Source: a virus
Lineage: Duplodnaviria > Heunggongvirae > Uroviricota > Caudoviricetes
Length of the DNA stretch: 37,872 nucleotides
Strand: one strand, 5' to 3'
Virus record (IMG/VR): IMGVR_UViG_2563366845_000004
Coordinates: 1 to 37,872 of that record
Shown: positions 1-35,040 of the stretch, piece after piece
How the letters are laid out: every line of letters begins with the position of its first letter
Numbering within the stretch: position 1 is the first letter of the stretch
Notes under the pieces: generated by a model
Databases searched by the model: none
Told to the model about the DNA's origin: nothing
What the model saw: the letters and a program-made list of their open reading frames with translations, nothing else
Program-made: the position numbers and the translations under genes

Positions 1-1053
1 TTACGGGGTAATGCCAACCGCTGCCGCCACTTTGTCGCCATTTGGTAACGTTGCCAGTGGATTGAAACGGAGCGCCGTTTCCAAATGATCCGGTGCCAGA
101 TGCGCATAACGCATAGTCATTTTTATATCGTGATGTCCGAGAATTTTTTGTAAGGCCAAGATGTTTCCACCCGACATCATGAAGTGCGCCGCAAACGTAT
201 GGCGCAGAACGTGTGTCAGTTGACCGCGAGGGAGAACGATAGACGTTTTTTCCATCACGGATAAAAATTGAAAATAGCAGTCTGTGAAGAAATTGAACCC
301 ATCGAGCGCCATGATCTCTTCATAAAGCTCTTTACTGATAGGGATGCTTCTGTTTTTCTTACCCTTCGTTCTCACAAAGGTGATTCGGTACTTGGTGACC
401 TGTGAGCGAGTAAGATTGATTGCTTCTCGCCAACGTGCACCTGTACTTAGACATATTTTTACCACCAGTGCCAGAATTGGGTTCTGACGTTTGCAGTCAG
501 ACAGTAATTCGATAATCTGCTCATGTGTAAGCCATGCCATTTCCTTTTCTGCGATAGTGAATTTGCGCATCTTCTCTAATGGGTTTGGAAGTGTCCATTC
601 ACCCAGGCGGGAAAGTTCTCTGAAAACGCTGCTTAGATGGCTTTGCTCCAGGTTAACAGTAACTGGGCTTGCTCCTTTCTTCCATTTTTCACTGAAGTAG
701 ATTTCACCAGTAAGGCGTTTATCGCGATAGTGAGCAAACATTTTTGAGGTGAGATCAGTTGCAAGGGGATTTCCCAAGGCGTCAACCATCAACAGCAGCT
801 TGTTGTAGACATGCTGTCCGGCAGTAAGAGATTTGCCATGTAATTTGAACCATAGCTCAACCATATCTTTCAGTGTCCGACGATCCACTGATTCGCCCAG
901 CCAGGGCTTTGCTTCTATTTCCCCCATGGTGTATCGCTCGAAGGCCAGTGCTTCGCCTTTGGTGGCGAATTGTTTACGCACACGGCGTCCGCTACGTCCG
1001 GCGGGGTAACATTCGCAAAGCCATTTCCCTGTGGTTAGTTTTCGTACTGCCAT
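1..1053 (-). CDS. int: Tyrosine recombinase / phage integrase (P2/186 family)
   Basis: 350-aa ORF; C-terminal catalytic region with ...HVLRHTFA...HHDIKMTMRYAHL... typical of the lambda/P2 integrase family; first gene inside attL. Confidence 0.9.
   Translation of the reverse strand: MAVRKLTTGKWLCECYPAGRSGRRVRKQFATKGEALAFERYTMGEIEAKPWLGESVDRRTLKDMVELWFKLHGKSLTAGQHVYNKLLLMVDALGNPLATDLTSKMFAHYRDKRLTGEIYFSEKWKKGASPVTVNLEQSHLSSVFRELSRLGEWTLPNPLEKMRKFTIAEKEMAWLTHEQIIELLSDCKRQNPILALVVKICLSTGARWREAINLTRSQVTKYRITFVRTKGKKNRSIPISKELYEEIMALDGFNFFTDCYFQFLSVMEKTSIVLPRGQLTHVLRHTFAAHFMMSGGNILALQKILGHHDIKMTMRYAHLAPDHLETALRFNPLATLPNGDKVAAAVGITP
19..41. repeat. attL core (CGCTGCCGCCACTTTGTCGCCAT), lying inside the 3' end of int
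   Basis: Matches 35018..35040 at 22 of 23 positions; the two copies bracket the whole prophage. Confidence 0.6.
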
Positions 1054-1057
1054 AAAA

Positions 1058-1077
1058 AGCCCTCATATCAGAGGGCT
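1058..1077 (-). promoter_or_regulatory. Stem-loop directly upstream of the int start codon (possible attenuator or RBS-sequestering hairpin)
   Basis: agccctc-atatca-gagggct inverted repeat (7-bp stem); on the minus strand it is followed by TTTT and then the int ATG, and the likely int Shine-Dalgarno (GAGGG) sits in the 3' arm. Confidence 0.3.
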
Positions 1078-1138
1078 AAATTTAACTGTATATTTAAACA
1101 GTTATCAATGTATGTTTAGGATGAAATAAACATTGGCC

Positions 1139-2128
1139 TTACTCCTGTGCTTTTTCAGCGGTACTTGGCTTTAGTTTTTCTTTGGTTGAATCCCATAAAG
1201 ATTGGATTCCCGGAGGGAGTTCTGTTTTGTCAGAAAATGCAGAGTTACCAGACATATTCCAGTCTTTAAAGACTAACACAGCATCTTCTTTTGTTGACGT
1301 GGAACCATAAATTTGCAGGAATACTTGCCCAAACATTAGTGCATGTCTTCTATCTTTTCTCAAAATTGATTCATGGGTATATTTTTTAGAGTTTCCAAGG
1401 CAAATATATGCTAGCCAAGAAAGAATGGAAATACCAATTAAACCACGTGTGAAAAAATAAAATAGCTCAAAGCCTTTAACATTGTTGAAGTCAATTGTGG
1501 CGTAGAGTGTATAAAATGATGCACATACAGCAAGTAGCCCGAAAATGCAGCCAGTAAAAGCCCATACTTGCGACATTTTAATGAAATATAAGTCATCTGA
1601 ACTTAGTTCACTTTTAACGCTATCGACATATCCTGGTATTTTCTCATCAATCCTTTCTTGTTGTACTCGGCTTTGTAATTCGCTGTTAGATGCTTCAAGT
1701 TGCTTTATTCTAGATACGGCTTGCTCAATAATTGCTTCTTTTTCAGAATTTAGTTTTTCTAAATTTTCATTCCGAAGATGTAACGTAGCTTTGGACTCTT
1801 CAGCCTCCAATAAACGTTTGGTATATGATCGCATTATCTCTCGAAGATGTTTTTGTTCTTTTATTAATTCATCTATCTTGTTGTTTTCATTAATAAAAAT
1901 ATCTCCAACTTTATCGCTGTAGTTCATTTTTTCTTGCTGGGTTAATTTCCAGTAGTATTCTCTGAATTTATCAATTTCACCTTTTTTTAATAAGTCGATT
2001 AAGTAGGCGCGCTCATTTTCATTAAATTTATGCGGATTTTCATTTAAAATATTATAAAGATCTTTCCATTCGCAATTAACTTTTTCAACATAATCGATGT
2101 TTTCATTTTTTTTATTTTCAGAATTCAT
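1139..2128 (-). CDS. Hypothetical coiled-coil / multi-pass membrane protein (lysogeny-operon moron; candidate superinfection exclusion or abortive-infection protein)
   Basis: ORF 1139..2206; probable start ATG at 2128 (MNSENKK...) with AGGAA RBS, 10 nt after the repressor stop codon. K/E-rich heptad-like N-terminal region, then three hydrophobic helices (e.g. VWAFTGCIFGLLAVCASFYTLY, LIGISILSWLAYICLG). Strongly AT-rich compared with neighbours. Confidence 0.6.
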   Translation of the reverse strand: MNSENKKNENIDYVEKVNCEWKDLYNILNENPHKFNENERAYLIDLLKKGEIDKFREYYWKLTQQEKMNYSDKVGDIFINENNKIDELIKEQKHLREIMRSYTKRLLEAEESKATLHLRNENLEKLNSEKEAIIEQAVSRIKQLEASNSELQSRVQQERIDEKIPGYVDSVKSELSSDDLYFIKMSQVWAFTGCIFGLLAVCASFYTLYATIDFNNVKGFELFYFFTRGLIGISILSWLAYICLGNSKKYTHESILRKDRRHALMFGQVFLQIYGSTSTKEDAVLVFKDWNMSGNSAFSDKTELPPGIQSLWDSTKEKLKPSTAEKAQE

Positions 2129-2138
2129 GTATGTTCCT

Positions 2139-3077
2139 TTAAATTTCCTTTGAAAAAACGCAACAACATTTTGCGATGGTTGTAATGTCTTCAAGCTTAC
2201 AAACAAAATCAGTTGTATCTGATGTGATTTTTACTTTTCCAACTGGAATTCTTGTTAATTTTCTTAAACTTACTTTACCTTCAATCTCAATCAACCAACT
2301 ACCATCTGAAACATCATCATATTCTGTATCTGCAATAAAGGTTTTTCCTTCTGCGGTAACTCCAATCGGTTTTTTCAATCCGGAAGGTATAAGCGTCTTG
2401 TCAAATGCTAAGTAGCCTTCATCATGTAATTTACCGTCAATGATTGTTTGGTGTTTAAGTTGGGCTACAGAGCTGGAATTATCGAAAAATTTGGGGCCAT
2501 TGCCGTTTGTGAGCCAGAGTAATGAAGCTCCTGTTTCAAGAGCGCATTGAATGATCCAATCGCTAGGAAACGTGTCTCGTAAGTACCTGTTTGCTACAGT
2601 GCTTTTTGAAACCTGCAAATGGTTTGCTAGGGCTTGTCGGGTGCTAAAGCCGTAGGCTGCGACTAAGCGATCAATTGCCGCCTTCCCTCCTTTATTAGGA
2701 TTTATGCTGGTCTCGATTGGGAACTTTTGGACTGTTGAGTTAGTTCTATCCGGGTCATCAGATTTGGTATGGGCTAAACGTTCATCATTTAATAAAACTG
2801 AGGGTGATTCACAGCTGATTCCTGATGCCAACCAGTCGATAGATGCGCCGGTCTCTATACTGCAAATTATCACCCAGTCAGCAGGAAATGTGTCACGAGC
2901 ATACCTGTTAGCCATCGTGCTTTGTGAGATACCCAGATGATTGCAAAATGCTTGCCGCGAAGTAAAACCATACGCAACAAGTATACGCTCAATTACTTTC
3001 TGTCCCCCACGGTTTTGCATTATTGAAGTTTTTAGACTCTCGCTAACATGGCGAAATGTGTTTTTTTGAGTTGACAT
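2139..3077 (-). CDS. cI: 186 CI-like immunity repressor with tandemly duplicated N-terminal HTH domain
   Basis: 312 aa; two consecutive copies of the CI N-terminal domain (…ERILVAYGFTSRQAFCNHLGISQSTMANRYARDTFPADW…ETGASIDWL… and …DRLVAAYGFSTRQALANHLQVSKSTVANRYLRDTFPSDW…ETGASLLWL…), then a C-terminal region resembling the 186 CI C-terminal domain (SDGSWLIEIEGKVSLRKLT). Divergent from the apl-like gene. Confidence 0.7.
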   Translation of the reverse strand: MSTQKNTFRHVSESLKTSIMQNRGGQKVIERILVAYGFTSRQAFCNHLGISQSTMANRYARDTFPADWVIICSIETGASIDWLASGISCESPSVLLNDERLAHTKSDDPDRTNSTVQKFPIETSINPNKGGKAAIDRLVAAYGFSTRQALANHLQVSKSTVANRYLRDTFPSDWIIQCALETGASLLWLTNGNGPKFFDNSSSVAQLKHQTIIDGKLHDEGYLAFDKTLIPSGLKKPIGVTAEGKTFIADTEYDDVSDGSWLIEIEGKVSLRKLTRIPVGKVKITSDTTDFVCKLEDITTIAKCCCVFSKEI

Positions 3078-3165
3078 AACCGTTATGAGATCCTAATCTC
3101 CGTTTTGTGAAGTTCTGGTCACAATTCAAACCGGCTCACCACAAGCCAATAGGAGATGTTGCATC
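3078..3165. promoter_or_regulatory. Early switch region (pR/pL-type divergent promoters and operators) between repressor and apl-like gene
   Basis: Intergenic region between divergent cI and apl/cox-like genes; contains the short inverted repeat GAGAT-CCTA-ATCTC (3087..3100) and an AGGAG RBS for the rightward gene. Confidence 0.4.
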
Positions 3166-3387
3166 ATGACCCCTAACATTTCAATAACTCTGAATACGCC
3201 ACATGTCACAATTGAGCGTTATAGCGAACTTACTGGTCTTTCAATCGACACAATTAACGATATGCTGGCTGACGGTCGCATCCCTCGGCATCGCCTTCGG
3301 AAAGACAAGAAAAGAGAAAAGGTGATGATCAACCTTGCTGCTCTTACCGTTGATGCACTTACTGATTGCAATGTTGTATTCAACTAG
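3166..3387 (+). CDS. Apl/Cox-like excisionase / early transcriptional regulator (HTH)
   Basis: 73 aa, first rightward gene opposite the repressor; HTH-like segment [22 protein letters not shown]; AGGAG RBS. Confidence 0.6.
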
Positions 3388-3419
3388 TTCCATTTTGGGA
3401 TACATCAGGGGTGTCGACC

Positions 3420-3929
3420 ATGTTTGATTACCAAGTTTCCAAACATCCACATTTTGATGAAGCCTGTCGTGCATTCGCACTGCGCCACAACCTGGTGCAA
3501 CTGGCAGAACGTGCAGGCATGAATGTGCAGATTCTGCGGAACAAGCTGAACCCAGCTCAACCTCATTTATTAACCGCACCAGATATCTGGCTACTTACCG
3601 ATCTGACTGAAGATTCAACGCTGGTAGACGGTTTTCTGGCACAGATTCATTGTCTGCCATGTGTACCGATTAATGAGGTGGCAAAAGAGAAACTGCCACA
3701 TTACGTCATGAGTGCAACCGCAGAGATCGGGCGTGTTGCTGCAGGTGCGGTATCTGGCGATGTAAAAACCAGTGCAGGTCGTCGTGATGCTATCAGCAGC
3801 ATTAACTCTGTAACACGACTGATGGCGTTGGCTGCTGTTTCATTGCAGGCCCGTTTACAGGCTAACCCTGCGATGGCGAGTGCAGTTGATACCGTGACTG
3901 GCCTCGGTGCTTCATTCGGTTTGCTGTGA
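3420..3929 (+). CDS. cII: Phage regulatory protein CII (186 CII-like)
   Basis: ORF 3366..3929; start at [10 protein letters not shown] gives 169 aa, which I recall as the 186 CII length; positioned directly after apl as in 186. Confidence 0.65.
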
Positions 3930-3936
3930 GGTACTT

Positions 3937-4233
3937 ATGCTGACGAAAGAACCATCATTTGCATCGCTGCTGGTAAAGCAAAGCCCGGCAATGCACTACG
4001 GTCACGGCTGGATCATGGGTGAGGATGGAAAACGCTGGCATCCATGTCATTCACAAGATGAATTGCTGTCTGAATTGACCACGAGGAAACGGAGAAAGTC
4101 AAAATGTATGCAGCGGAAGGTGAAGTGGTTTATCAGTTTCGTTACAGAGGGGAGAGTTATTCAGTACCTGAAGATGATTTGCTCTGTTGTTATCCGTCGT
4201 TGTCGGGCGATGGCAGTTACTTTTTCACGCTAA
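3937..4233 (+). CDS. Hypothetical early protein (reading frame uncertain in its 3' part)
   Basis: ORF 3907..4233 with plausible start at MLTKEP; the last ~40 codons overlap the next gene in another frame and look low-complexity. Confidence 0.3.
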   Translation: MLTKEPSFASLLVKQSPAMHYGHGWIMGEDGKRWHPCHSQDELLSELTTRKRRKSKCMQRKVKWFISFVTEGRVIQYLKMICSVVIRRCRAMAVTFSR

Positions 4234-4328
4234 AAGATGGGACGTTTTTACGGGGAGAGCAGGTTAAAGAGACGATACGAAAAAATGTATCTCCTCTTGA
4301 ACGTTACCGTAATAACAAACAACGATAG
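4104..4328 (+). CDS. Hypothetical early protein
   Basis: 74 aa, GGAG RBS 9 nt upstream of ATG; overlaps the previous ORF by about 130 nt. Confidence 0.5.
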   Translation: MYAAEGEVVYQFRYRGESYSVPEDDLLCCYPSLSGDGSYFFTLKDGTFLRGEQVKETIRKNVSPLERYRNNKQR

Positions 4329-4350
4329 TTGCGTTTTGGGGATATGAATT

Positions 4351-4692
4351 ATGGCAATTAATGGCGCTGCGGCGACTGTTCCATTAAGCCCCGGTGAACG
4401 CCTGAATGGACTTAATCACATTGCGGAGCTAAGGGCGAAAGTTTTTGGCCTGAATATTGAGTCAGAGCTTGAGCGGTTTATTAAAGATATGCGTGATCCA
4501 CGGGATATCAATAACGAACAAAATAAACGGGCACTGGCTGCTATATTCTTTATGGCAAAAATTCCAGCTGAACGTCATAGCATCAGCATTAATGAGCTGA
4601 CCACTGACGAAAAGCGGGAGTTGATTAAAGCAATGAATCATTTTCGTGCAGTGGTGAGCTTATTTCCCAGACGGCTAACCATGCCGAATTAA
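4351..4692 (+). CDS. Hypothetical early protein
   Basis: 113 aa, GGGGA RBS, same orientation within the early operon. Confidence 0.55.
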   Translation: MAINGAAATVPLSPGERLNGLNHIAELRAKVFGLNIESELERFIKDMRDPRDINNEQNKRALAAIFFMAKIPAERHSISINELTTDEKRELIKAMNHFRAVVSLFPRRLTMPN

Positions 4693-4759
4693 CCAACTAA
4701 TGAAATTAATGGCGTAAACCCGCCGGGTATCCCTTTATCTAAATTCAGGAGAATTGATT

Positions 4760-4993
4760 ATGCGTAATATTGAAACCCTCACGACTAAAACCGGACCGGA
4801 TGATGCAGGGCTTAATATTTTACTGACAGAGGCTCGTCTGGAAGAACGCCGGGCAAGGGCTGAAGCAATGGCAGCTCGCCTTGATAGCCTGGCGTGTCAT
4901 ATCACATCCCGCCAGCTAAACCACGTCGAAGCAGCAGAACTACTGCGTGTAACTGCTGAAGCAATCCAGAACGAAGCGCAGGAGATCCACTAA
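4760..4993 (+). CDS. Hypothetical early protein
   Basis: ORF 4754..4993; ATG at 4760 preceded by AGGAGA; its stop overlaps the next start (TAATG). Confidence 0.5.
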   Translation: MRNIETLTTKTGPDDAGLNILLTEARLEERRARAEAMAARLDSLACHITSRQLNHVEAAELLRVTAEAIQNEAQEIH

Positions 4994-5220
4994 TGGCTGA
5001 TGCAATGGATCTCGTACAGCAGCGCGTTGAAGAAGAACTCCAGCGCCATATCCGTGCTGCCCGTGCCAAAACGCCGGGCGTGTCCCGCGTGCTTTGCATT
5101 GAGTGTGAAGCGCCAATTCCGCCAGCACGCCGCCGCGCCATTCCAGGTGTGCAGCTTTGCATTACCTGTCAGGAAATCGCAGAGCTGAAAGGCAAACATT
5201 ACAACGGAGGTGCTGTATGA
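4993..5220 (+). CDS. TraR/DksA-family C4 zinc-finger protein
   Basis: 75 aa with CIECEAPIPPARRRAIPGVQLCITCQ (CxxC-N17-CxxC), typical of phage TraR/DksA-like proteins; ATGA overlap with the downstream gene. Confidence 0.7.
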   Translation: MADAMDLVQQRVEEELQRHIRAARAKTPGVSRVLCIECEAPIPPARRRAIPGVQLCITCQEIAELKGKHYNGGAV

Positions 5221-6074
5221 GCACCATCCTGAAATGGGCGGGAAATAAAACCGCAATTATGTCCGAACTGAAAAAACACCTTCCTGCTGGCCCGCGACTG
5301 GTTGAACCTTTCGCGGGTTCCTGTGCTGTGATGATGGCGACGGATTATCCAAGCTATCTGGTTGCGGATATTAATCCTGATTTAATCAACCTCTATAAAA
5401 AGGTTGCCGCTGATTGTGAATCGTTTATATCTCGCGCCAGAGTTTTATTTAAGGAAGCAAACAGGGAGGTGGCTTATTACAACATAAGGCAGGAGTTTAA
5501 TTACTCAACTGAAATTACTGATTTCATGAAAGCGGTATATTTCCTGTATCTCAATCGTCACGGTTACCGTGGTTTATGTCGCTATAACAAGAGCGGGCAT
5601 TTCAACATTCCCTACGGTAATTATAAAAATCCGTATTTCCCTGAAAAAGAAATTCGCGCATTTGCAGAAAAAGCCCAGCGGGCAACGTTTATCTGCGCCA
5701 GCTTTGATGAAACGCTGGCGATGTTGAAGGCGGGGGATGTGGTGTATTGCGATCCGCCGTATGACGGCACGTTTTCCGGTTATCACACTGACGGCTTCAC
5801 TGAAGATGACCATTATCACCTGGCATCCGTTCTTGAACATCGGTCATCAGAAGGACATCCGGTCATTGTTTCTAACAGTGACACATCCCTGATCCGTTCG
5901 CTGTATCGCAATTTTACTCACCACTACATCAAGGCAAAACGCAGCATCGGCGTAGCAGCTGGTGAGAGTAAATCTGCAACAGAAATCATCGCTGTTTCTG
6001 GGGCGCGCTGCTGGGTGGGATTTGATCCTTCGCGTGGCGTGGATAGTTCTGCCGTGTACGGAGTGCGTGCATGA
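5217..6074 (+). CDS. dam: DNA adenine methyltransferase (Dam-type N6-adenine MTase, orphan)
   Basis: N-terminal ILKWAGNK...PFAGSCAV (AdoMet-binding) and catalytic DPPY motif ([10 protein letters not shown]); start is an internal ATG of ORF 5157..6074. Confidence 0.85.
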
Positions 6075-8485
6075 GCCATGCTGATATGAACAACTGCAGC
6101 GGCTTTAACGAGGCCGCCGCAGCATTCTCATGGAACAGCCCGAAAAAGTCTATTAACCCTTATCTGGACCCGGCGGAAGTTGCGCCGGTTTCTGCGCTTT
6201 CAAACCTGATCACTCTGTACGCTGTCGATAACGAGCAGGAACAACTGCGTCGCGAGGCACTGAGTGATCAGGTCTGGGAGCGTTATTTCTTTAATGAATC
6301 CCGTGATCCTGTCCACCGCGAAATGGAGCAGGATAAGCTCATTAGCCGGGCAAAGCTGGCGCATGAGCAGCAGCGTTTTAATCCAGATATGGTCATTCTG
6401 GCGGACGTCAATGCCCAGCCTTCCCATATCAGCAAGCCGCTGATGCAACGTATTGAATACTTCAGCAGCCTGGGCAGGCCAAAGGCTTATTCCCGCTATT
6501 TGCGTGAGACGATTAAGCCATGTCTGGAACGACTGGAGCATGTACGCGACTGTCAGCTATCCACTTCTTTTCGCTTTATGGCAAGCCATGAAGGGCTGGA
6601 CGGCCTGCTGATCCTGCCTGAAATGAGTCAGGATCAGGTGAAGCGCCTGTCTACCCTTGTCGCCGCGCATATGAGCATGTGCCTTGATGCAGCTTGTGGT
6701 GATTTGTATGCCACCGATGACGTTAAGCCAGAAGAAATCCGCAAGACATGGGAAAAGGTGGCAGCGGAAACCCTGCGTCTGGATGTTATCCCGCCTGCGT
6801 TTGAGCAACTCCGTCGGAAAAGAAACCGCCGTAAACCCGTGCCTTATGAACTCATTCCGGGTTCGCTGGCGCGTATGTTATGCGCCGACTGGTGGTATCG
6901 GAAATTATGGAAGATGCGTTGCGAATGGCGGGAAGAGCAGTTGCGTGCTGTTTGCCTGGTCAGCAAAAAAGCATCTCCCTATGTCAGCTATGAAGCCGTG
7001 ATGCATAAACGTGAGCAGCGCCGTAAGTCGCTGGAGTTTTTCCGTTCTCATGAACTGGTGAACGAAGACGGCGACACGCTGGATATGGAAGACGTGGTAA
7101 ACGCCAGCAGCAGCAACCCTGCGCATCGCCGCAATGAGATGATGGCCTGTGTTAAAGGTCTGGAGCTTATCGCGGAAATGCGCGGTGACTGCGCCGTTTT
7201 CTACACCATCACCTGTCCGTCACGTTTCCATTCCACGCTAAATAACGGCAGGCCCAACCCGACCTGGACAAATGCGACGGTAAGACAAAGCAGTGATTAT
7301 CTGGTCGGTATGTTTGCTGCATTTCGTAAGGCGATGCACAAAGCCGGATTGCGCTGGTATGGCGTGCGGGTGGCTGAGCCGCATCATGACGGTACAGTTC
7401 ACTGGCACCTGTTGTGTTTTATGCGCAAAAAAGATCGCCGCGCCATTACTGCTTTGTTGCGTAAGTTTGCCATTCGTGAAGACCGCGAGGAGCTGGGTAA
7501 TAACACGGGACCACGCTTTAAGTCTGAGCTGATAAACCCGCGCAAAGGTACGCCAACAAGCTACATCGCGAAATACATCAGTAAGAACATTGACGGGCGT
7601 GGTCTGGCTGGCGAGATCAGCAAGGAAACGGGTAAATCCCTGCGTGATAACGCTGAATACGTTAATGCCTGGGCGTCTCTGCATCGTGTTCAGCAATTCC
7701 GCTTCTTTGGCATTCCGGGGCGTCAGGCTTACCGTGAACTGCGATTGCTGGCTGGTCAGGCGGCAAGGCAACAGGGGGACAAAAAAGCAGGTGCGCCGGT
7801 ACTGGATAACCCGCGTCTTGATGCCATCCTGGCTGCTGCTGATGCTGGTTGTTTTGCCACCTACATCATGAAGCAGGGCGGCGTACTGGTTCCCCGCAAA
7901 TATCACCTCATCAGAACCGCTTATGAAATCAACGAAGAGCCGACCGCCTATGGCGATCACGGCATTCGTATTTATGGCATCTGGTCACCCATTGCAGAGG
8001 GCAAGATCTGCACTCATGCGGTGAAGTGGAAAATGGTTCGTAAGGCCGTTGACATTCAGGAGGCGGCAGCCGACCAGGGCGCTTGCGCCCCTTGGACTCG
8101 TGGCAATAACTGTCCCCTTGCTGAAAATTTGTACCAACAAGGGAAAGACAAATCAGCTGATGGAGATACCAGAACGGATATCACCCGTATGGATGACAAG
8201 GAGTTGCACGATTACCTGCACAGTATGAGCAAAAAAGAGCGCCGGGAACTGGCAGCAAGGTTACGCCTGGTGAAACCGAAACGGCGTAAAGACTACAAAC
8301 AGCGAATTACAGATCATCAGCGACAGCAGCTCGTGTATGAACTGAAGTCCAGGGGATTTGATGGCAGCGAGAAAGAGGTCGATTTACTCCTTCGCGGCGG
8401 CAGTATTCCATCAGGAGCAGGCCTGCGTATCTTCTATCGGAACCAGCGTTTGCAGGAAGATGATAAGTGGCGGGATCTGTATTAA
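6071..8485 (+). CDS. Replication initiation endonuclease (P2 gpA-like rolling-circle initiator)
   Basis: 804 aa; HUH-type motif (VHWHLLCF) and downstream tyrosine-containing region (YIAKYISKN); size and position as P2 gene A. Confidence 0.85.
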
Positions 8486-8638: not shown

Positions 8639-8827
8639 ATGCAGGACTATTTTTTGGAGTCTTTGAAGCTCCAGCGCATTGATTTTTTTCTTAAGCTTGT
8701 AGCGGCTAGTGAGTGTAGTGATGAAGAGAAGGGGCTGGCTCTGCAGTGGGTTTCTGAATTGACTGATGAACTCATGGCAAAAATCAGAAGCCACGAATAC
8801 AACCGCTCAATGGATGTCATCAGCTGA
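8639..8827 (+). CDS. Small SOS-regulated protein (possible Tum-like antirepressor N-terminal part)
   Basis: 62 aa, strong AGGAGG RBS, immediately downstream of the LexA box and followed 10 nt later by a DinI-like ORF. Confidence 0.5.
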   Translation: MQDYFLESLKLQRIDFFLKLVAASECSDEEKGLALQWVSELTDELMAKIRSHEYNRSMDVIS

Positions 8828-8837
8828 GGTGACTTTT

Positions 8838-9071
8838 ATGCGCATTGAAATAATGATCGATAAAGAGCAGAAAATTAGCCAGTCTACCCTGGACGCCCTT
8901 GAATCCGAGCTTTACCGCAGTCTGCGCCCCCTGTATCCCAAAACGGTAATTCGTATCCGCAAAGGTAGCTCTAACGGTGTGGAACTGACCGGACTGCAAC
9001 TGGACGAAGAAAGAAAACAAGTGATGAAAATTATGCAGAAGGTGTGGGAAGACGACAGCTGGCTGCATTAA
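8838..9071 (+). CDS. DinI-family protein (DinI/Tum C-terminal-like)
   Basis: 77 aa beginning MRIEIMIDKE... and ending ...QKVWEDDSWLH, matching the DinI fold signature; GAGGTGA RBS. Confidence 0.75.
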   Translation: MRIEIMIDKEQKISQSTLDALESELYRSLRPLYPKTVIRIRKGSSNGVELTGLQLDEERKQVMKIMQKVWEDDSWLH

Positions 9072-11107: not shown

Positions 11108-12547
11108 ATGACGCCAAAAGTTTTTATATCATATAGTTGGAGTAGCCCAGCTCATAAGGAAAGAGTTAAAGCAATAGCTGATAGACTTTTGAGTGATGGA
11201 GTGGATGTTGTCATTGACATATATGATTTGAAGGAGGGCAATGATAAAAACGCATTCATGGAAAAAATGATTGTTGATAAAAGTATCACCAATGTGCTTG
11301 TGATGTGTGATTCAGTTTACGCAAAAAAAGCTGATAACAAACAAAGTGGGGTTGGCACAGAATCCCAGATCATCTCTCAACAAGTCTACACAAAAGTCGA
11401 ACAATCAAAATTTATACCTATTGTTTGTGAATTTGATGAGAATTCAGAACCTTGTCTTCCTGTTTTTATGAGTTCGCTAATATGGATTGACCTTTCAACA
11501 CCAGAAAAAGAAAATCAAAATTGGGAACGGTTAGTAAGGCTGCTTAATGGAAAACCAGCAGATATAAAACCTAAGCTTGGAAAAAGACCAAGTTATTTAG
11601 ATAGTGGGCAATATGATCCGGTGAGTGAACCACACGCAAAATTTAATAGCTTGAAACAAGCTGTTTTGCAAAATAGGGCAGGTGTTAGTTATTATCGGCG
11701 TGATTTCGTTGATTCAGTAGTCAAGTACCTTGACGGGATGAGAATCCGAGCTCGCCCAGAGCAAAATGATTTACAAAGCATGGGTAGGAAAATAATTAGC
11801 GACGTTGCTGCCATGAAGCCTATCAGGGATTATGTGTGTGAATGGATAACTCTTGAGGCAGAGTTTACGATGCAGGATGAATTTTCAACAGAACTAGTAA
11901 AGTTCTTTGAAAAAGTTCTGTTACTAACCGAAGCTCCTAGCGATGTCAGTTCATGGCAATTAAACTGGTATGATGCACAAAAGGTATTTGCATACGAAAT
12001 TTTCTTATATTCAGTTGCTATATTGATTAGATTAGAGAAGTTTCAATTAGTACGTGCGATTTTATCTGCCAGATTCCTTTCTGGTGATAGGCAGTTACCA
12101 CCGGAACATAGACTCGTGTCAATTAGCGCTTTCTTAGCTGATTCTGAAACGCTACAGGCAGGTTTTGAAGAAGATATAAGGTATTACTCTCCAGTTGCAG
12201 AGCTAATTAAAAGAAATGCAGATAGGGAAGATATTACCTTTTCTGATCTTATGCAGGCTGATGTGCTAGTTCTTTTTTATTCATTTTGTAATGATGGTGT
12301 CTATTGGTATCCATGCACTATTCATTATGCGAGTTATAATTATAGACCTGAACTATTTTTAAGAGCGACACAGCATAAGTATTTTGAATATTTAGCAATG
12401 ATTGCCGGGATAGCGTCAGCGCAAGAGATCAAATTGAAGGTTAAGGCCGGCGCTCAGAGTATGCATAATTCAGGGGTTAGATATGGACGTATGGGGACTG
12501 GTTTTGAAAGTATGATGAACGCCGATAACCTTGATTTTATAAAATGA
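11108..12547 (+). CDS. SEFIR/TIR-domain protein with an uncharacterised C-terminal domain (candidate single-gene antiphage effector)
   Basis: 479 aa; N-terminus KVFISYSWSSPAHKERVKAIADRLLSDGVDVVIDIYDL...NVLVMCDSVY fits the SEFIR/TIR (STIR) signature; moderately AT-rich; convergent with the portal gene. Confidence 0.65.
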   Translation: MTPKVFISYSWSSPAHKERVKAIADRLLSDGVDVVIDIYDLKEGNDKNAFMEKMIVDKSITNVLVMCDSVYAKKADNKQSGVGTESQIISQQVYTKVEQSKFIPIVCEFDENSEPCLPVFMSSLIWIDLSTPEKENQNWERLVRLLNGKPADIKPKLGKRPSYLDSGQYDPVSEPHAKFNSLKQAVLQNRAGVSYYRRDFVDSVVKYLDGMRIRARPEQNDLQSMGRKIISDVAAMKPIRDYVCEWITLEAEFTMQDEFSTELVKFFEKVLLLTEAPSDVSSWQLNWYDAQKVFAYEIFLYSVAILIRLEKFQLVRAILSARFLSGDRQLPPEHRLVSISAFLADSETLQAGFEEDIRYYSPVAELIKRNADREDITFSDLMQADVLVLFYSFCNDGVYWYPCTIHYASYNYRPELFLRATQHKYFEYLAMIAGIASAQEIKLKVKAGAQSMHNSGVRYGRMGTGFESMMNADNLDFIK

Positions 12548-20976: not shown

Positions 20977-21858
20977 TTATTTCATTTCGTGTGGCATATT
21001 TATGGCTTTGATTTTTTCGTGGTAATGATTAAACTCAATATGAGTATTGGTAAAATTAGATTCAAATGTATTCATTAAATTGGAATATAGTGATTCATAT
21101 GATAAGGATACTTTTTTTCCATTTTTTTCTGCAGTTGTGCTAATGTACCTATGTACTGCAGAAAAAAGAAAATGACCTCTAAGCCACTTTCTGTATTCTA
21201 TCGATTTTGATTTGAAAGATGAATCGATGTTATCTGGTTCCACACCTAATTTTTCAATAATGGTGTTTTTGTAATCCGTGATTTTTTGCTCGCAAATTTC
21301 ATTTGATTTTCTAGATTTCATGAAACGATCTGCACTGTCACCAATAACTGAAATGCCTTTTCTATAAATATGATTGTATATATCAAGTTTTATTAGGGGT
21401 TCCATTTTGGTATAAAAGTCTTCTGTCCAAGAATCGATGTTGACATCGTTCATTATCTTTTGCGGTAATTTCCCGAGAGTTTTTATTGCCTTATATATGC
21501 CTGTTTTGTCAATAAATGTGTTTTCGATGGAGTGCCCATAAGTTTTTACAATACGACTATCAGCGTTTTCTTCATTTTCAAATGTAGTGAAGTCTGCATC
21601 ACATGCAATAATAATTTGAAGATCTTCATCAGTAACTCTATCAATATATTTTTTTAATTCTTCACAGCCGCCAACATCTTTGATTTCAACCTTTAATGAA
21701 CTAGCTTTATTAAAGATGATTTCCCAAAAGCAAATATCATCTGGGCCTTCAACATAAACCATGGCTTCAGCTTGGTAAAATAAATTCATTACATTTTCTG
21801 CTTCGGCAGAATAATGGAAATCATCCATGAACCAATTTCTCCATATCAAAGATTGCAT
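20977..21858 (-). CDS. Toprim/DUF4435-like nuclease partner (AriB-like) of a split OLD-family system
   Basis: 293 aa, AT-rich; N-terminal VYVEGPDDICFW (Toprim E-G..D) and IIACDADFT (DxD-like); start may be M1 (21858) or M11 (21828), overlapping or abutting the upstream ATPase gene. Confidence 0.55.
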   Translation of the reverse strand: MQSLIWRNWFMDDFHYSAEAENVMNLFYQAEAMVYVEGPDDICFWEIIFNKASSLKVEIKDVGGCEELKKYIDRVTDEDLQIIIACDADFTTFENEENADSRIVKTYGHSIENTFIDKTGIYKAIKTLGKLPQKIMNDVNIDSWTEDFYTKMEPLIKLDIYNHIYRKGISVIGDSADRFMKSRKSNEICEQKITDYKNTIIEKLGVEPDNIDSSFKSKSIEYRKWLRGHFLFSAVHRYISTTAEKNGKKVSLSYESLYSNLMNTFESNFTNTHIEFNHYHEKIKAINMPHEMK

Positions 21859-23080
21859 TTCGATATTTAGAGGCCACTTCTGGTGAATGCGTAGCGGCGA
21901 TAATTTGTGCGTTAGGGTTAAGTTGTTTGATTGCAGGTATTATTTTTCGTTGCCATGCAATATGTAGTGATAATTCTGGTTCATCAGTAAGATAGATGAA
22001 AGGTTTTTTTTGCTGTAGCAAAGTTTCAATAAAAAGAATTAATAGCTGTTTTTCTCCAGACGATAAATTACTATGGCTAATCGGCCCATGCTCGTTTTCT
22101 ATTACTAGCTCACCGGAGATAAAATTAAATTTTTTATCGGTTATGAACTCATGTAATGTTTCTAAAAATAGATTTATAGGAAGAAATATGTTTTTTATTT
22201 CCTCCTCGGATTTTAAAGACATCTTTATAATTCTTTGCGTCTTTCGTAATGCCTCAAATGATCTGTAATCTACATTTAAAATATTTCTGTTGTTTTTTTC
22301 TGCAAGTCGTAGTTCTTCAAATGTATTGGCAATAGATTCAACGTGAAAGTTAATCTTCTTTCTGACATCGCTATCAAAAGCTCCAAGTTGAGAATATGCA
22401 GCTATTAAATTTCTACGTTCTTTTTCTTTATCAAAAGAAAAGTTAAATGTGTCATCGATACCATCTTCTTTACTATAAAGAATAGAAGCAAGAACCTCTT
22501 TCTGTAATTTTGCAGAAACATCACGAGCTCTTTGTGATAAGTAAAGCTGATATTTTGTTAGATTCTGCAATAATTGTTCTAATCGGTAATCAACGGGGTT
22601 GATTAATTTTGAGCCATATTTGTCTCTGATTTCAAAATCTTCACCGCTTCTAAGTCGGTAAACTGATAGAGAAGATAAAGCAACTAATTTATCTAGCTCT
22701 AACTTAAGTTTTTCAACGTCTTCCTGATATTTTCTCCTCATATATATAGGCAGCCTACGATCTTCAAAGGATCTGATAATATATTTCTTTCTAGAAATTG
22801 TATATTCAAACGTAGGCAAAGCCTTAGTTATGTCAAATTTACTCACAACTTTTATTGTTTTAGTTTTGCTTCCTTCTTTTATTTTTATTGTTACATTATC
22901 AAAACTATTCTCATTTAACGATTCAAGTTCTAATGCCAGAACTGAGTGAAGAATATTCATAAAGGTTGTTTTACCGGTCCCATTTCGACCAATAATAATA
23001 TTTACATCTTCATTAAATGAACATGATGCATTTAGTCTTCCCCAAAAACCTTCAATCTTGACACTAGATAATCTAAACAT
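21821..23080 (-). CDS. OLD/AAA_21-type ABC ATPase (AriA-like)
   Basis: 419 aa; Walker A GRNGTGKTT, ABC signature LSSGEKQ, Walker B FIYLTDEPELSLH, H-loop ATHSPE; AAGGA RBS; AT-rich. Confidence 0.7.
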   Translation of the reverse strand: MFRLSSVKIEGFWGRLNASCSFNEDVNIIIGRNGTGKTTFMNILHSVLALELESLNENSFDNVTIKIKEGSKTKTIKVVSKFDITKALPTFEYTISRKKYIIRSFEDRRLPIYMRRKYQEDVEKLKLELDKLVALSSLSVYRLRSGEDFEIRDKYGSKLINPVDYRLEQLLQNLTKYQLYLSQRARDVSAKLQKEVLASILYSKEDGIDDTFNFSFDKEKERRNLIAAYSQLGAFDSDVRKKINFHVESIANTFEELRLAEKNNRNILNVDYRSFEALRKTQRIIKMSLKSEEEIKNIFLPINLFLETLHEFITDKKFNFISGELVIENEHGPISHSNLSSGEKQLLILFIETLLQQKKPFIYLTDEPELSLHIAWQRKIIPAIKQLNPNAQIIAATHSPEVASKYRNAIFDMEKLVHG

Positions 23081-27736: not shown

Positions 27737-27743
27737 ATTCCTG

Positions 27744-27767
27744 CCCCGCGCCTGCGGGGATTTTTTC
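27744..27767 (+). terminator. Rho-independent terminator after the tail fibre operon
   Basis: CCCCGC-GCCT-GCGGGG hairpin followed by ATTTTTTC. Confidence 0.7.
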
Positions 27768-27777
27768 ACCCCGTCGT

Positions 27778-27795
27778 TGTGCCATTTTCTATACA
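27778..27795. promoter_or_regulatory. Late promoter element (TGT-N12-ACA dyad) upstream of the sheath/tube operon
   Basis: Exact TGT-N12-ACA about 80 bp upstream of the sheath gene ATG. Confidence 0.5.
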
Positions 27796-27870
27796 AAACC
27801 CATCGCGTGCACCCTGCGTGTATCAACCAGAACATAGGCAGACCCCCTCTACAACCGGAGAGACTGCCTT

Positions 27871-29043: not shown

Positions 29044-29052
29044 GGGGACAAC

Positions 29053-29568: not shown

Positions 29569-29622
29569 ACTATCTGAACGGCGCGGGATACCGCGCCAGA
29601 ACCCAATTTACAGGACAGCAAA

Positions 29623-29925
29623 ATGAGTGATAAGCAGACTGAAAAGACCATTCAACTGGATACCCCCATCAAGCGCGGTAAAACAGAAATCACCGAAATT
29701 GTGTTGCGTAAACCGCAGTCCGGTGCGCTGCGCGGTACACGCCTGCAGGCCATTATGGATATGGATGTGAACGCGATGATGACCGTGATCCCCCGCATCT
29801 CCAGTCCGGCACTGACTGCACAGGAAATTGCAGAGATGGACCCGGCAGATCTCACTGCCATGTCGGTTGAGGTTGTCACTTTTTTGTTGAAGAAGTCGGT
29901 GCTTGCCGGTTTACCGACAGCCTGA
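29623..29925 (+). CDS. Tail assembly chaperone E (P2 gpE-like)
   Basis: 100 aa; contains the slippery heptamer T TTT TTG near its 3' end. Confidence 0.8.
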   Translation: MSDKQTEKTIQLDTPIKRGKTEITEIVLRKPQSGALRGTRLQAIMDMDVNAMMTVIPRISSPALTAQEIAEMDPADLTAMSVEVVTFLLKKSVLAGLPTA

Positions 29926-30059
29926 CGGTTGACGATCTGGTGGCTGATATCGCCACCATCTTTCACTGGCCGCCATCCGTTACTGACGTTATGCCGCTGA
30001 CCGAAGTGCTGGAATGGCGGTATAAAGCGATTCAGAGAAGCGGGGCCAACGATGAGTGA
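29623..30059 (+). CDS. E+E' extended product made by -1 programmed ribosomal frameshift
   Basis: Slippery T6G at 29880..29886; the -1 frame stays open to TGA at 30057..30059, ending just inside the tape-measure gene as in P2 E/E'. Confidence 0.6.
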
Positions 30060-33000: not shown

Positions 33001-33129
33001 CAGACGCAGCCAGGACAAAGTGCGCAGGATATTGCGCGGGAGGTGGCACGCCAGCTTGATGAACGTGAACGCAGGCTGAAGGCAAAAGCCAGGAGTAACT
33101 ACAGCGATCAGGGGGGATACGACGTATGA
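30052..33129 (+). CDS. Tail tape measure protein (P2 gpT-like)
   Basis: 1025 aa; coiled-coil N-terminal region, central hydrophobic Ala/Leu-rich repeats (PLAVLRRGL-type), position after E/E'. Confidence 0.85.
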   Translation: MSDNNLRLQVILNAVDKLTRPFRAAQASSKELAGAIRNSRDALKQLNQAGNSLEKFRKLQADNKKLGDRLNYARQKANLLSSELEAMEQPSQRHLVALGRQTLAVQRLEEQQKYLQKQTALVRAELYRAGISAKDDAGATARLARETSRYNQELSKQEARLKRLGEAQRRMNAARASYARSLEVRDRIAGAGATTTAAGLAMGAPVMAAVKSYTSMEDAMKGVAKQVNGLRDDNGNRTARFYEMQDAIKAASEQLPMENGAVDFAALVEGGARMNVANPDDSWEDQKRDLLAFASTAAKAATAFELPADELSESLGKIAQLYKIPTRNIEQLGDALNYLDDNAMSKGADIIDVMQRLGGVADRLDYRKAAALGSSFLTLGAAPEVAASAANAMVRELSIATMQSKSFFEGMNLLKLNPEVIEKQMTKDAMGTIQRVLEKVNALPQDKRLSAMTMLFGKEFGDDAAKLANNLPELQRQLKLTAGNDALGSMQKESDINKDSLSAQWLLVKTGAQNTFSSLGETLRQPLMDILYTVKSVTGALRRWGEANPELTGTLMKVAAIVAAVTVGLGTLAVALAAVLGPLAVIRLGFSVLGIKTLPSVTAAVTRTSSALSWLAGAPLAVLRRGLASSGNAAGLLTAPLSSLRRTASLTGNVLKTVAGAPVALLRSGLSALRAVAVMFMNPLAVLRGGLAAAGAVLRVLASGPLAMLRVALYAISGLLGALLSPIGLVVTALAGVALVVWKYWQPITAFLGGVVEGFKAAAGPVSAAFEPLKPVFQWIGDKVQALWGWFTDLLTPVKSTSAELQSAAAMGRRFGEALAEGLNMVMHPLDSLKSGVSWLLEKLGIVSKEAAKAKLPESVTRQQPATVNADGKVMMPSGGFPSWGYGFAGMYDSGGYIPRGQFGIVGENGPEIVNGPANVTSRRNTAALAAVVAGMMGVAAAPAELPPLHPLALPAKGGEAIVSRAATVPLVQRIEAPTQIIIQTQPGQSAQDIAREVARQLDERERRLKAKARSNYSDQGGYDV

Positions 33130-33611
33130 TGATGGTGCTGGGATTGTACGTGTTTATGCTGCGCACCGTGCCGTATCAGGAACTGCAGTATCAACGCAGC
33201 TGGCGACATGCGGCTAACAGCCGGGTAAATCGTCGTCCATCCACGCAGTTTCTGGGACCGGACAACGACATGCTGACGCTTTCTGGTGTTCTTATGCCGG
33301 AGATAACAGGCGGCAGGCTGTCGTTGCTGGCACTGGAGCAGATGGCAGAACAGGGGAAAGCATGGCCCCTGATTGAAGGCAGCGGCACGATTTACGGCAT
33401 GTATGTGATTGAGGGACTGAATCAGACTAAAACGGAGTTTTTCCGCGACGGTATGCCGCGCCGGATTGAGTTCACTCTGTCGCTCAAACGGGTGGATGAA
33501 TCCCTGTCCGATATGTTCGGTGATCTCAGTGCGCAACTGAATAATCTTCAGGACACGGCAACATCTGCCTTAAGCGATATCAGTAAAACGGTGGGAGGGC
33601 TGCTGTCGTGA
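33126..33611 (+). CDS. Tail protein U (P2 gpU-like)
   Basis: 161 aa, overlaps the T stop. Confidence 0.8.
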   Translation: MMMVLGLYVFMLRTVPYQELQYQRSWRHAANSRVNRRPSTQFLGPDNDMLTLSGVLMPEITGGRLSLLALEQMAEQGKAWPLIEGSGTIYGMYVIEGLNQTKTEFFRDGMPRRIEFTLSLKRVDESLSDMFGDLSAQLNNLQDTATSALSDISKTVGGLLS

Positions 33612-34708
33612 ATTTCAGTTCTGAACTGCTTAACAAAGGTAACAAAACTCCCGCATTCAGCATCAGTATTGAGGGCAGGGATATCACCACAGTGCTGGAT
33701 AACCGCCTGATGGGGCTGACGCTGACGGATAACCGGGGATTTGAAGCGGACCAGCTTGATCTGGAGCTGGACGACGCCGATGGAAAAATCGTGCTGCCGC
33801 GCCGTGGTGCGGTCATTACGCTGGCGCTGGGCTGGAAGGGGCAGCCGCTTTTCCCGAAAGGGGCATTCACGGTCGACGAGATTGAACACACTGGCGCACC
33901 GGACCGCCTGACTATCCGGGCGCGAAGTGCTGATTTTCGTGAAACACTGAATACCCGCCGCGAAAAATCGTGGCACAAGACCACTGTCGGGGAAGTGGTG
34001 AAGGAAATAGCCGTACGTCACAAGCTGAAGATGGCACTGGGTAAAGACCTGTCGGATAAGCCCGTGGAGCATATAGACCAGACTAATGAGAGTGACGGTA
34101 GTTTTTTGATGCGGTTGGCGCGCCAGTACGGTGCTATTGCGTCGGTGAAAAATGGCAATCTGTTATTCATCCGGCAGGGACAGGGCAAAAGCGCCAGCGG
34201 TAAACCACTGCCGGTGATCACTATCACGCGTAAGGACGGCGACAGTCACCGCTTTACCCTGGCAGATCGCGGAGCCTACACGGGCGTAATTGCCAGCTGG
34301 TTGCATACCCGCGAACCTGCGAAGAAAGAAAGCACCACGGTGAAGCGTAAGCGCAGAACTAAGAAGCAGAAGAAAGAGCCAGAAGCGAAGCAGGGCGATT
34401 ACCTGGTGGGTACGGATGAAAACGTGCTGGTACTTAATCGCACCTATGCCAACCGGAGCAACGCTGAACGAGCGGCGAAAATGCAGTGGGAACGCCTGCA
34501 ACGCGGCGTTGCGTCATTCTCGCTACAACTGGCAGAAGGTCGGGCAGATCTCTACACGGAAATGCCAGTGAAAGTCAGTGGCTTTAAACAGCCGATAGAT
34601 GATGCGGAATGGACCATTACGACTCTGACGCATACTGTCAGCCCGGATAACGGTTTTACGACCAGTCTGGAGCTTGAAGTGAAGATTGATGATTTCGAAA
34701 TGGAATGA
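33608..34708 (+). CDS. Tail protein D (P2 gpD-like)
   Basis: 366 aa, GTG start overlapping the U stop; last tail gene before ogr. Confidence 0.8.
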   Translation: MNFSSELLNKGNKTPAFSISIEGRDITTVLDNRLMGLTLTDNRGFEADQLDLELDDADGKIVLPRRGAVITLALGWKGQPLFPKGAFTVDEIEHTGAPDRLTIRARSADFRETLNTRREKSWHKTTVGEVVKEIAVRHKLKMALGKDLSDKPVEHIDQTNESDGSFLMRLARQYGAIASVKNGNLLFIRQGQGKSASGKPLPVITITRKDGDSHRFTLADRGAYTGVIASWLHTREPAKKESTTVKRKRRTKKQKKEPEAKQGDYLVGTDENVLVLNRTYANRSNAERAAKMQWERLQRGVASFSLQLAEGRADLYTEMPVKVSGFKQPIDDAEWTITTLTHTVSPDNGFTTSLELEVKIDDFEME

Positions 34709-34798
34709 TTCTTCGCAATGGAGAACTTTTAAGTTTTCAAAATGGAATAATGCGGTATCATTATTGTGAATTTAGCAAAAATGGGGAGAACTCGAAAA

Positions 34799-35017
34799 AT
34801 GATGATTTGCCCACTGTGTGGAAGTGCCGCCCATACTCGCAGCAGTTTTCAGGTATCTTCATTGACCAAAGAGCGTTACAACCAGTGCCAGAACATTAAC
34901 TGCAGCCATACTTTTGTTACCCATGAAACTTTTGTTCGTTCGATTGCAACGCCAAAAGAGTCAAATCCGGTTCAGCCGCATCCAATGAAATCAGGACAGG
35001 TGGCGCTCTCTCTTTGA
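34799..35017 (+). CDS. ogr: Ogr/Delta-family zinc-finger late-gene transcription activator
   Basis: 72 aa from MMICPLCGSAAH...CQNINCSHTF (CxxC-N22-CxxxxC), P2 Ogr length; GGGAGA RBS; stop abuts the attR core. Confidence 0.85.
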   Translation: MMICPLCGSAAHTRSSFQVSSLTKERYNQCQNINCSHTFVTHETFVRSIATPKESNPVQPHPMKSGQVALSL

Positions 35018-35040
35018 CGCTGCCGCCATTTTGTCGCCAT
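35018..35040. repeat. attR core (CGCTGCCGCCATTTTGTCGCCAT)
   Basis: Direct repeat of 19..41 (22 of 23 identical), immediately after the ogr stop codon. Confidence 0.6.

Follow-up and report, generated by a model that had tools for sequence, protein, structure and literature searches.

Genes and repeats at the prophage ends

The window, the whole 37,872-nucleotide stretch of DNA that was analysed, carries a P2-like prophage whose lysogeny module (int, cI, apl, and cII) is of the phage 186 type. The prophage lies in the rcdA-ybjL intergenic region, as foreseen by the original prediction, which had integration occur beside ybjL. The leftmost gene, int, encodes a tyrosine integrase; the product of the apl/cox-like gene is presumed to be the recombination directionality factor; and ogr, for which DG341-1 and Ecol_881 have an annotated homologue of 219 bp, is the last phage gene before attR (Table 1). 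The host genes ybjL, ybjM, and grxA make up the right flank (35253-37872), also as predicted, although the DNA that directly follows the right repeat (35041-35081) still belongs to the phage. The best E. coli matches are 99.4-99.5% identical.

Table 1. Features of the window that bear on its attachment sites
Feature	Position	Strand	Sequence or basis
int, 186-type tyrosine integrase, 350 aa	1..1053	-	Pfam Int_N and Phage_integrase; stop codon 1-3
P' arm pair, candidate Int arm-type sites	19..41	+	TGCCGCCACTT (22-32), TGTCGCCATTT (33-43)
apl/cox-like excisionase and repressor	3166..3387	+	PHROG 575 'Cox-like excisionase and repressor', E = 9.6e-32
ogr, late-gene activator	34799..35017	+	Pfam Ogr_Delta
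P arm pair, candidate Int arm-type sites	35018..35040	+	TGCCGCCATTT (35021-35031), TGTCGCCATCG (35032-35042)
P-arm spacer, phage DNA, 41 bp	35041..35081		absent from empty sites; present in intact attP of KP12 and L135
IHF-consensus-like site (candidate)	35060..35072	-	AATCATGATGTTA; consensus match only
attR copy of att core, 27 bp	35082..35108	+	ATAAATTTCAGGCAACAAAAAACCCAC; empty site, attL, and attR compared
ybjL terminator-like hairpin	35096..35142	-	stem-loop 35142-35102, U-tract 35101-35096
Host ybjL	35253..36938	-	ORF and RefSeq annotation of matching loci
Host ybjM	37208..37585	+	ORF and RefSeq annotation of matching loci
Host grxA	37615..37872	-	ORF and RefSeq annotation of matching loci

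Near the two ends of the prophage stand two copies of a 23-bp direct repeat, CGCTGCCGCCA(C/T)TTTGTCGCCAT, which differ at a single base; they lie exactly where they had been reported (window 19-41 and 35018-35040). The left copy reads CGCTGCCGCCACTTTGTCGCCAT and the right copy CGCTGCCGCCATTTTGTCGCCAT, with the variable base at position 12. The repeat is thus real, but the consensus first printed for it had 22 letters and a misplaced variable base; searched literally in the window, that form gave no match even at three mismatches. The window contains two matches to the 23-mer, compared with none in 100 dinucleotide-preserving shuffles. In a repeat search of the whole window, the 23-mer was absent from the 20 largest families, and only weak, chance-like families were listed. 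The positions relative to the genes agree with the earlier description: the left copy overlaps int codons 338-345 (NGDKVAAA) within the 3' end of the gene, and the right copy directly adjoins the ogr stop codon. The further statement that the sequences outside the two copies are unrelated is partly right; on the left, where the int stop codon opens the window, only 18 bases could be judged.

Each 23-mer is composed of two 11-bp direct repeats (TGCCGCCAYTT, TGTCGCCAT..). Within the window, the tandem 20-mer YRYCGCCAYTYYRYCGCCAY is found only at the two arms. Late genes hold four further single copies of the 11-mer, all on the plus strand, compared with a total expectation of about 0.55, so a lone 11-mer match is not specific by itself.

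Junctions and the att core

A significant terminal direct repeat, near int on one side and just past ogr on the other as in P2-like prophages, invites the reading first given to it: that the 23-mer is the att core of recombination, marks the prophage ends, and leaves the last int codons to be completed by the host. An uninterrupted site would then be expected to hold a single copy. No match to the 23-mer, even with three mismatches allowed, was found in the 6.5 kb that surround the empty site of SJC33, and it is absent at the K-12 rcdA-ybjL site as read; both sites contain core-like sequence only. Furthermore, most E. coli genomes align to the window only from 35082 onward, and the right 23-mer is separated from host DNA, which begins at 35109, by the 41-bp phage spacer and then a 27-bp core. 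The left copy lies about 92 bp inside the phage.

The window covers only the attR of its prophage, and the junctions were therefore compared in the lysogens Ecol_881 and IPD24 against the SJC33 and K-12 empty sites. In Ecol_881, a single lysogen, attL and attR have exactly the 27-bp ATAAATTTCAGGCAACAAAAAACCCAC in common, and their outer flanks equal the empty site. IPD24 likewise has a shared core and outer flanks that join as the empty site; its two core copies, in attL and attR, disagree at positions 1, 5, 9, 12, and 13 and are identical over the right-hand 14 bp. Strand exchange probably takes place within this part, AACAAAAAACCCAY (35095-35108). Inverted repeats around the core, of the kind that would form core-type Int sites, were looked for, and nothing convincing was found. 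The original prediction had named an empty site without the 23-mer, or a different repeat at the junctions, as grounds for giving up the 23-mer as core and boundary, and both are seen here.

The attL copy of the core is outside the window, about 74 bp away from its left end. Its placement, the P' arm between core and position 1, and the 27-bp extent of the core are taken from related lysogens whose int is 99.4% identical. Because these 74 bp of phage P' arm stand between the int stop codon and the core, the int gene, stop codon included, is wholly phage DNA, contrary to the proposal that its last codons come from the host.

Independent records locate the att site in the same place. In the Klebsiella phage 4LV2017, the attL and attR annotated by the depositor coincide with the core sequence, not the 23-mer. 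A published deletion in E. coli HS (Phollow study), designed to recreate attB, removed the prophage between rcdA and a point '77 bp downstream of ogr'; that point maps to 35094 in the window, within the core. Finally, an intact attP holds two copies of the 23-mer (see below), where a core would be single. Against this evidence, the reading of the 23-mer as att core retains practically no credibility. The repeat nevertheless belongs to the attachment-site machinery.

The core overlaps the 3' stem half and the U-tract of a terminator-like hairpin of ybjL (a 12-bp stem followed by UUUUUU; -23.9 kcal/mol, z = -2.3). The hairpin sequence is also present at empty sites, and attR restores it intact. 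A simple terminator scan found none near attR, since the loop is longer than the scan permits; the hairpin was then seen by folding. Among 5,426 complete E. coli genomes, 4,227 have an uninterrupted rcdA-ybjL site and 1,123 have the rcdA-core-P'arm-int junction, which places a prophage at this site in about 21% of them.

Candidate arm-type sites of the integrase

The integrase, which has an Int_N domain, shares 54% identity with phage 186 Int and 38-39% with P2 Int, and its N-terminal residues W11, E14, and Y16 are those of the 186 type, the corresponding discriminating residues in P2 being Y, D, and R (PMC3448106). The four 11-bp sites within the two 23-mers (Table 1) match the arm-site consensus of 186-type integrases, tgccGCCActt (PMC3448106), a paper whose text does not mention ybjL or rcdA. 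The GenBank record of phage 186 likewise lists 'predicted Int arm-type recognition sequences; consensus YAYCGCCAYTY', so that the arm sites are themselves labelled as predicted there (NC_001317). On these grounds, the 23-bp repeats are very probably pairs of 186-type Int arm sites, with the att core a separate sequence of up to 27 bp.

The arrangement of an unintegrated attP is consistent with this assignment. In the Klebsiella phage KP12 and in two metagenomic IMG/VR contigs (L135 and L136), attP is intact, with both 23-mers 183 bp apart and one core between them, in the order pair, 41 bp, core, 92 bp, pair. The segment corresponding to window 35041-35081 is contiguous with the rest of attP in KP12, and the P arm pair stands at an equal distance from the core in KP12, 4LV2017, L135, and L136. 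Five related attL/attP sequences all have the P' 23-mer unchanged; one of them is MS14386, in which a different gene arrangement takes the place of int right after the 23-mer and the adjoining sequence is unrelated. L136 has an unrelated P-arm spacer and unrelated sequence past the P' pair, yet retains both 23-mers, their spacing, and the core. The 23-mers are thus conserved independently of neighbouring sequence, as expected of arm sites. Tandem CGCCA repeats with 11-bp spacing, on both arms and in one orientation, also occur in phages 186, PHB48, and SEN8, whose Int proteins are 53-56% identical to the one described here.

These comparisons bear on the idea that the copies no longer have a function and were left behind by a tandem prophage or by a second integration event, whether nested or earlier. 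Some prophages of this type at the same site have been reduced to remnants by deletion, and one of them (L034) retains both 23-mer copies. Yet phage and metagenomic DNA alike hold both copies in one compact 206-bp attP, the copies are kept where adjacent sequence was exchanged, and the same layout of two pairs recurs in phages with only about 54% Int identity, making a relic origin highly improbable.

Alternatively, the repeats could bind an accessory protein, an Apl/Cox-like excisionase or IHF, rather than Int. Sites for accessory factors also repeat in attP arms, and the phage 186 record annotates five Apl sites and two IHF footprints near the core. However, the consensus that the motif equals has been assigned to Int arm sites and to neither Apl nor IHF, and the Apl sites of 186 are on one arm only, between core and arm sites. 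In addition, the cI-apl switch (3078-3165), where Apl should have an operator, holds no copy of the 11-mer. As for IHF, its consensus, WATCAANNNNTTR, has no match in the 23-mer; candidate IHF-like sites are separate from the 23-mers and sit between the arm sites and the core, such as the one in the P-arm spacer with one mismatch to that consensus. Binding of an accessory protein to the 23-mers is accordingly unlikely, although somewhat less so than a relic origin. When the P' arm was compared by eye with the cI-apl switch region, only a weak resemblance (TGGTCA) was noticed, and no Apl-site motif is claimed.

If the 23-mers are Int arm sites, the tandem 11-bp pairs on the P arm (after ogr) and the P' arm (in the last int codons) would be bound by the N-terminal domain of Int. 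Heterobivalent Int protomers would bridge arm and core sites and, with bends induced by IHF, assemble the intasome for integration. Integration would then leave the two arm pairs about 35 kb from each other, one at attL and one at attR; it is this split between attL and attR that would make the arm pairs resemble terminal direct repeats. The same pairs would be used again for excision, together with the Apl/Cox-like protein. The analysis shows the positions of the sites, the match to the motif, the layout of intact attP, the conservation, and the empty site, and from these the physical binding of Int, IHF, and Apl is predicted.

The overlap of the P' pair with codons 338-345 raises the question of whether Int bound there may act on int itself, as a roadblock or through 3'-end feedback, or whether coding and binding jointly constrain this segment. 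Either is very improbable, and the overlap seems incidental, because the sites lie outside int in MS14386, L136, and phage 186.

Relation to known attachment sites

Among the closest known systems, 4LV2017 (Elveevirus) and KP12, both Klebsiella phages, the E. coli phage vB_EcoM-813R9, the 'P2' prophage of E. coli HS (Phollow), and NC-MV of E. coli NC101 have the same integrase type (about 95% identical), the ogr-attP-int order, the arm pairs, and the core, and the site used in E. coli is rcdA-ybjL. They differ in a few core bases, which match each host's attB, in cargo genes, and in the immunity region.

Another is the phage 186 attP (NC_001317). Its arm motif is the same at 10 of 11 consensus positions, its 11-bp-spaced repeats are likewise in tandem on both arms in one orientation, and the distance from core to P' pair, about 95 bp, is similar. 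In addition to its integrase with the same N-terminal discriminating residues, 186 has a cI/apl/cII switch. Unlike the present prophage, which occupies the rcdA-ybjL intergenic terminator region, 186 integrates at the 3' end of a tRNA-Ile gene (ileY) and has a different core. Its P' sites lie outside int, downstream of an intervening orf69, rather than overlapping the last int codons, and its P-arm distance is about 76 bp instead of 41 bp.

Phage P2 shares the ogr-attP-int order, a core flanked on either side by two direct arm repeats, and the use of a heterobivalent Int with IHF and a Cox-type directionality factor, whereas its arm consensus is tgTGGaCa and its Int N-terminal residues differ as given above (PMC3448106). 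The lower identity of P2 Int sets the two systems further apart, as do the core and the host site. In phage lambda, a heterobivalent tyrosine integrase binds the arm-type sites through its N-terminal domain, and integration splits these sites between attL and attR. The likeness of its P and P' arm sites to those proposed here is a functional analogy only: the lambda sites have another motif, number, and orientation, and the attP of lambda adjoins the int-xis operon on its 5' side.

The arrangement at this locus is therefore already known: a tyrosine integrase of the heterobivalent kind, a core that overlaps a terminator, and a commonly occupied site. What the locus adds is a caution: a terminal direct repeat in a P2/186-like prophage need not be the att core, and arm sites can mimic one. 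Boundaries drawn at the 23-mers are off by 64 bp at attR and by about 120 bp at attL, and they wrongly suggest that the host completes int. Accurate boundaries are important for curating prophages, for deleting them cleanly or reconstituting attB, and for designing integration vectors that use this integrase.

The 23-mer repeat and the host junction

Two copies of a 23-mer lie in direct orientation near the int and ogr ends of the prophage and differ only at base 12. No such pair arose in 100 dinucleotide-preserving shuffles of the window, which excludes a chance origin. The left copy covers the last codons of int (338-345, NGDKVAAA), and the right copy starts immediately after the ogr stop codon. 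The original prediction located and placed both copies correctly; its printed consensus is wrong, having 22 letters only and no match when searched. The window runs precisely from the int stop codon to the grxA start codon, so only 18 bases are visible left of the left copy. It resembles a prophage prediction cut at gene boundaries (positions 1 and 37872), and this apparent trimming accounts for the missing attL, whose core copy lies outside. The 20-mer at 22-41 is found at the same position in many IMG/VR contigs.

Positions of the attachment-site features and other genes in the window
Feature	Position	Strand	Description
int	1-1053	-	350-aa integrase gene; stop codon at 1-3
23-mer, left copy (P' arm)	19-41		CGCTGCCGCCACTTTGTCGCCAT
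ORF between int and cI	1139-2206	-	Up to 355 aa; PHROG 2628 match (unknown function)
cI repressor ORF	2139-3077	-	312 aa
Apl/Cox-like protein	3166-3387
DinI-like ORF	8766-9071	+	Matches DinI-like RecA-filament-binding protein family (PHROG 189); downstream of replication gene
TIR/SEFIR-domain protein	11108-12547	+	479 aa; PADLOC bSEFIR model match, E = 4.6e-104
Single arm-site 11-mers	14548, 15068, 17845, 28961	+	TGYCGCCAYYK; within late genes
Two-gene cassette	20977-23080	-	AAA_21/AAA_15 ATPase (AriA-like, 419 aa) and DUF4435 protein (AriB-like, 293 aa)
23-mer, right copy (P arm)	35018-35040		CGCTGCCGCCATTTTGTCGCCAT
IHF-like site, P arm	35060-35072		Consensus match, 1 mismatch
attR core copy (27-mer)	35082-35108		From Ecol_881 attL/attR versus the empty site

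Of 5,426 complete E. coli genomes, 5,419 match the right flank (35041-35640), but for most the alignment starts only at query base 42, or window 35082. In the empty site of strain SJC33, the rcdA stop TAGTAG is followed by ATAAATTTTAGGCAACAAAAAACCCAC and CAACCTTGAACC..., on into ybjL, and K-12 MG1655 has ATAAGTTTTAGATAACAAAAAACCCAT at the equivalent place. The 23-mer is absent from both sites, and allowing up to 3 mismatches finds no copy in 6.5 kb around the SJC33 site. The 23-mer had been read as the att core, so that a single copy was expected in the uninterrupted host locus. The lysogen Ecol_881, whose int is 99.4% identical to that of the window, served as junction reference. Its attL reads rcdA ...TAGTAG, ATAAATTTCAGGCAACAAAAAACCCAC, TTATCTAAATGG..., then 74 bp and the int stop codon, and its attR reads ogr, 23-mer, 41 bp, ATAAATTTCAGGCAACAAAAAACCCAC, CAACCTTGAACC.... 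This makes the shared 27-mer the junction repeat. Both outcomes named beforehand as refuting, an empty site without the 23-mer and a different repeat at the junctions, were thus seen, and attP holds two copies of the 23-mer; its reading as att core and prophage boundary is refuted. Sequence comparison assigns 35041-35081 and the entire int, stop codon included, to the phage, contrary to the proposal that the host supplies the last int codons. The original prediction stands for the repeat itself, which belongs to arm-site pairs with the core elsewhere.

The prophage occupies the common rcdA-ybjL site, which is uninterrupted in 4,227 of the 5,426 genomes and carries an rcdA-core-P' arm-int junction in 1,123 (~21%). 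Site and arm repeats were already known. Klebsiella phage 4LV2017 has an ogr-attR region that is 99.7% identical, and its depositors placed attL and attR at the core (CAGGCAACAAAAAACCCAT) instead of the 23-mer. In the Phollow preprint, the 'P2' prophage of E. coli HS was deleted from rcdA to '77 bp downstream of ogr', recreating attB; this endpoint falls within the core, at 35094. Integration between ybjL and rcdA is likewise described for NC-MV of E. coli NC101.

A further lysogen, IPD24, has host (K-12-like) bases in attL (ATAAGTTTTAGATAACAAAAAACCCAT) and phage bases in attR (TTAAATTTCAGGCAACAAAAAACCCAT). Core positions 1, 5, 9, 12, and 13 differ between them, and only the right-hand AACAAAAAACCCAT is common to both. 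This segregation of variants implies strand exchange within or to the right of the 14-bp segment at 35095-35108. Just downstream of ybjL, a strong minus-strand hairpin (-23.9 kcal/mol, z = -2.3) shares its U-tract and the 3' half of its stem with the core, and attR regenerates this terminator-like structure.

Predicted integrase arm-type sites and attP layout

Each 23-mer consists of tandem 11-bp direct repeats, TGCCGCCAYTT followed by TGTCGCCAT..., and the 20-mer YRYCGCCAYTYYRYCGCCAY occurs in the window only at the two 23-mers. Nilsson et al. (PMC3448106) give tgTGGaCa as the arm-repeat consensus of P2-type phages and tgccGCCActt as that of the 186 type; the first half of the 23-mer (22-32) matches the latter exactly. 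In the GenBank record of phage 186, attP is annotated on either side with 'predicted Int arm-type recognition sequences; consensus YAYCGCCAYTY'. The window Int has an Int_N domain, shares 54% identity with 186 Int and 38-39% with P2 Int, and carries W11, E14, and Y16; W, E, and Y versus Y, D, and R have been proposed to separate 186-type from P2-type arm recognition (PMC3448106). The int region adjoins cI, a Cox/Apl-like excisionase, and cII, a 186-type switch. Each 23-mer is thus a pair of predicted 186-type integrase arm sites, one pair per attP arm. A site for an accessory protein, Apl or IHF, is unlikely, as this motif has been assigned to Int and lies on both arms; it is also absent from the cI-apl switch region, and the 23-mer lacks an IHF consensus. 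The 11-mer TGYCGCCAYYK occurs 8 times in the window, against ~0.55 expected from shuffles. None of the four extra copies is in a tandem pair, and they may reflect codon or oligonucleotide bias.

In Klebsiella phage KP12, ogr and int are adjacent, and attP runs from the ogr stop through CTCTGCCGCCAATTTGTCGCCAT, 41 bp, ATAAATTTCAGACAACAAAAAACCCAT, and 74 bp to the int stop, followed by 18 bp and CGCTGCCGCCACTTTGTCGCCAC. In two more IMG/VR contigs, identified by a gapped-pattern scan, both pairs lie 183 bp apart with one core between. One of these, L136, is unrelated to the window in its P-arm spacer and past the P' pair, yet retains both 23-mers, their spacing, and the core. In E. coli MS14386 the P' arm is complete through the final base of the 23-mer, where similarity ends and a small ORF and an int in a different position follow. 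Retention despite changed neighbours shows that the 23-mer is conserved as part of attP, not for int coding. Phages 186, PHB48, and SEN8 likewise carry CGCCA repeats in tandem at 11-bp spacing, in one orientation on both arms, and the PHB48 P' sites also lie within the int 3' end. This recurrence in distant relatives, together with the single compact attP that the two pairs make up in phage DNA, makes a relic of another integration event unlikely.

Matches to the IHF consensus, with 1 mismatch, flank the core inside the arm pairs, two of them on the P' arm; these putative sites parallel the annotated IHF footprints of 186. The P' arm outside the window (L003 3927-4000) has two short direct-repeat sets between core and int stop codon: the IHF-like AAAAACAATAA(G/C)TTA, present twice, and GTGGTGGTCA/GTGGTGGTTA in tandem. 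These are candidate IHF or Apl sites. Elements of ~8-10 kb also occupy the rcdA-ybjL site (L034, IMG/VR 638341082_000009, 1-7900; similarly L019, L075, and L082). They retain int, the core, both 23-mers, and the T'-U-D-ogr end but lack most late genes, and appear to be deleted prophage remnants.

Other genes in the prophage

The cI ORF encodes two tandem, clearly similar CI N-terminal HTH domains (~aa 20-85 and 128-193) and one C-terminal domain, whereas CI in related prophages has ~198 aa. Among the 5,426 complete E. coli genomes, only 21 have the long form, annotated just as 'phage repressor protein CI'. The ORF between int and cI has no significant Pfam or PADLOC family and one sub-threshold Pfam hit; a 558-aa DUF4041 protein replaces it in related prophages, so this position looks like a variable cargo slot. 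The TIR/SEFIR gene, in the variable region between the replication and portal genes, is candidate anti-phage defence cargo, and the opposite-strand cassette among the tail genes is a candidate PARIS-type defence system.

Proposed integration and excision

Heterobivalent tyrosine integrases, including those of lambda, P2, 186, and HP1, divide their work between arm and core sites. Two sources of uncertainty remain, namely the attL of this prophage, which lies outside the window, and Int binding at the 23-mers, which is predicted. Positions, motif, layout, conservation, and empty site were observed; by analogy, the Int N-terminal domain would bind the four arm sites, the core-binding and catalytic domains would act at the core, and IHF would bend the attP arms. 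Integration into rcdA-ybjL would separate the arm pairs by ~35 kb, with P' in attL and P in attR, and excision would re-use both pairs with the Apl/Cox-like protein.
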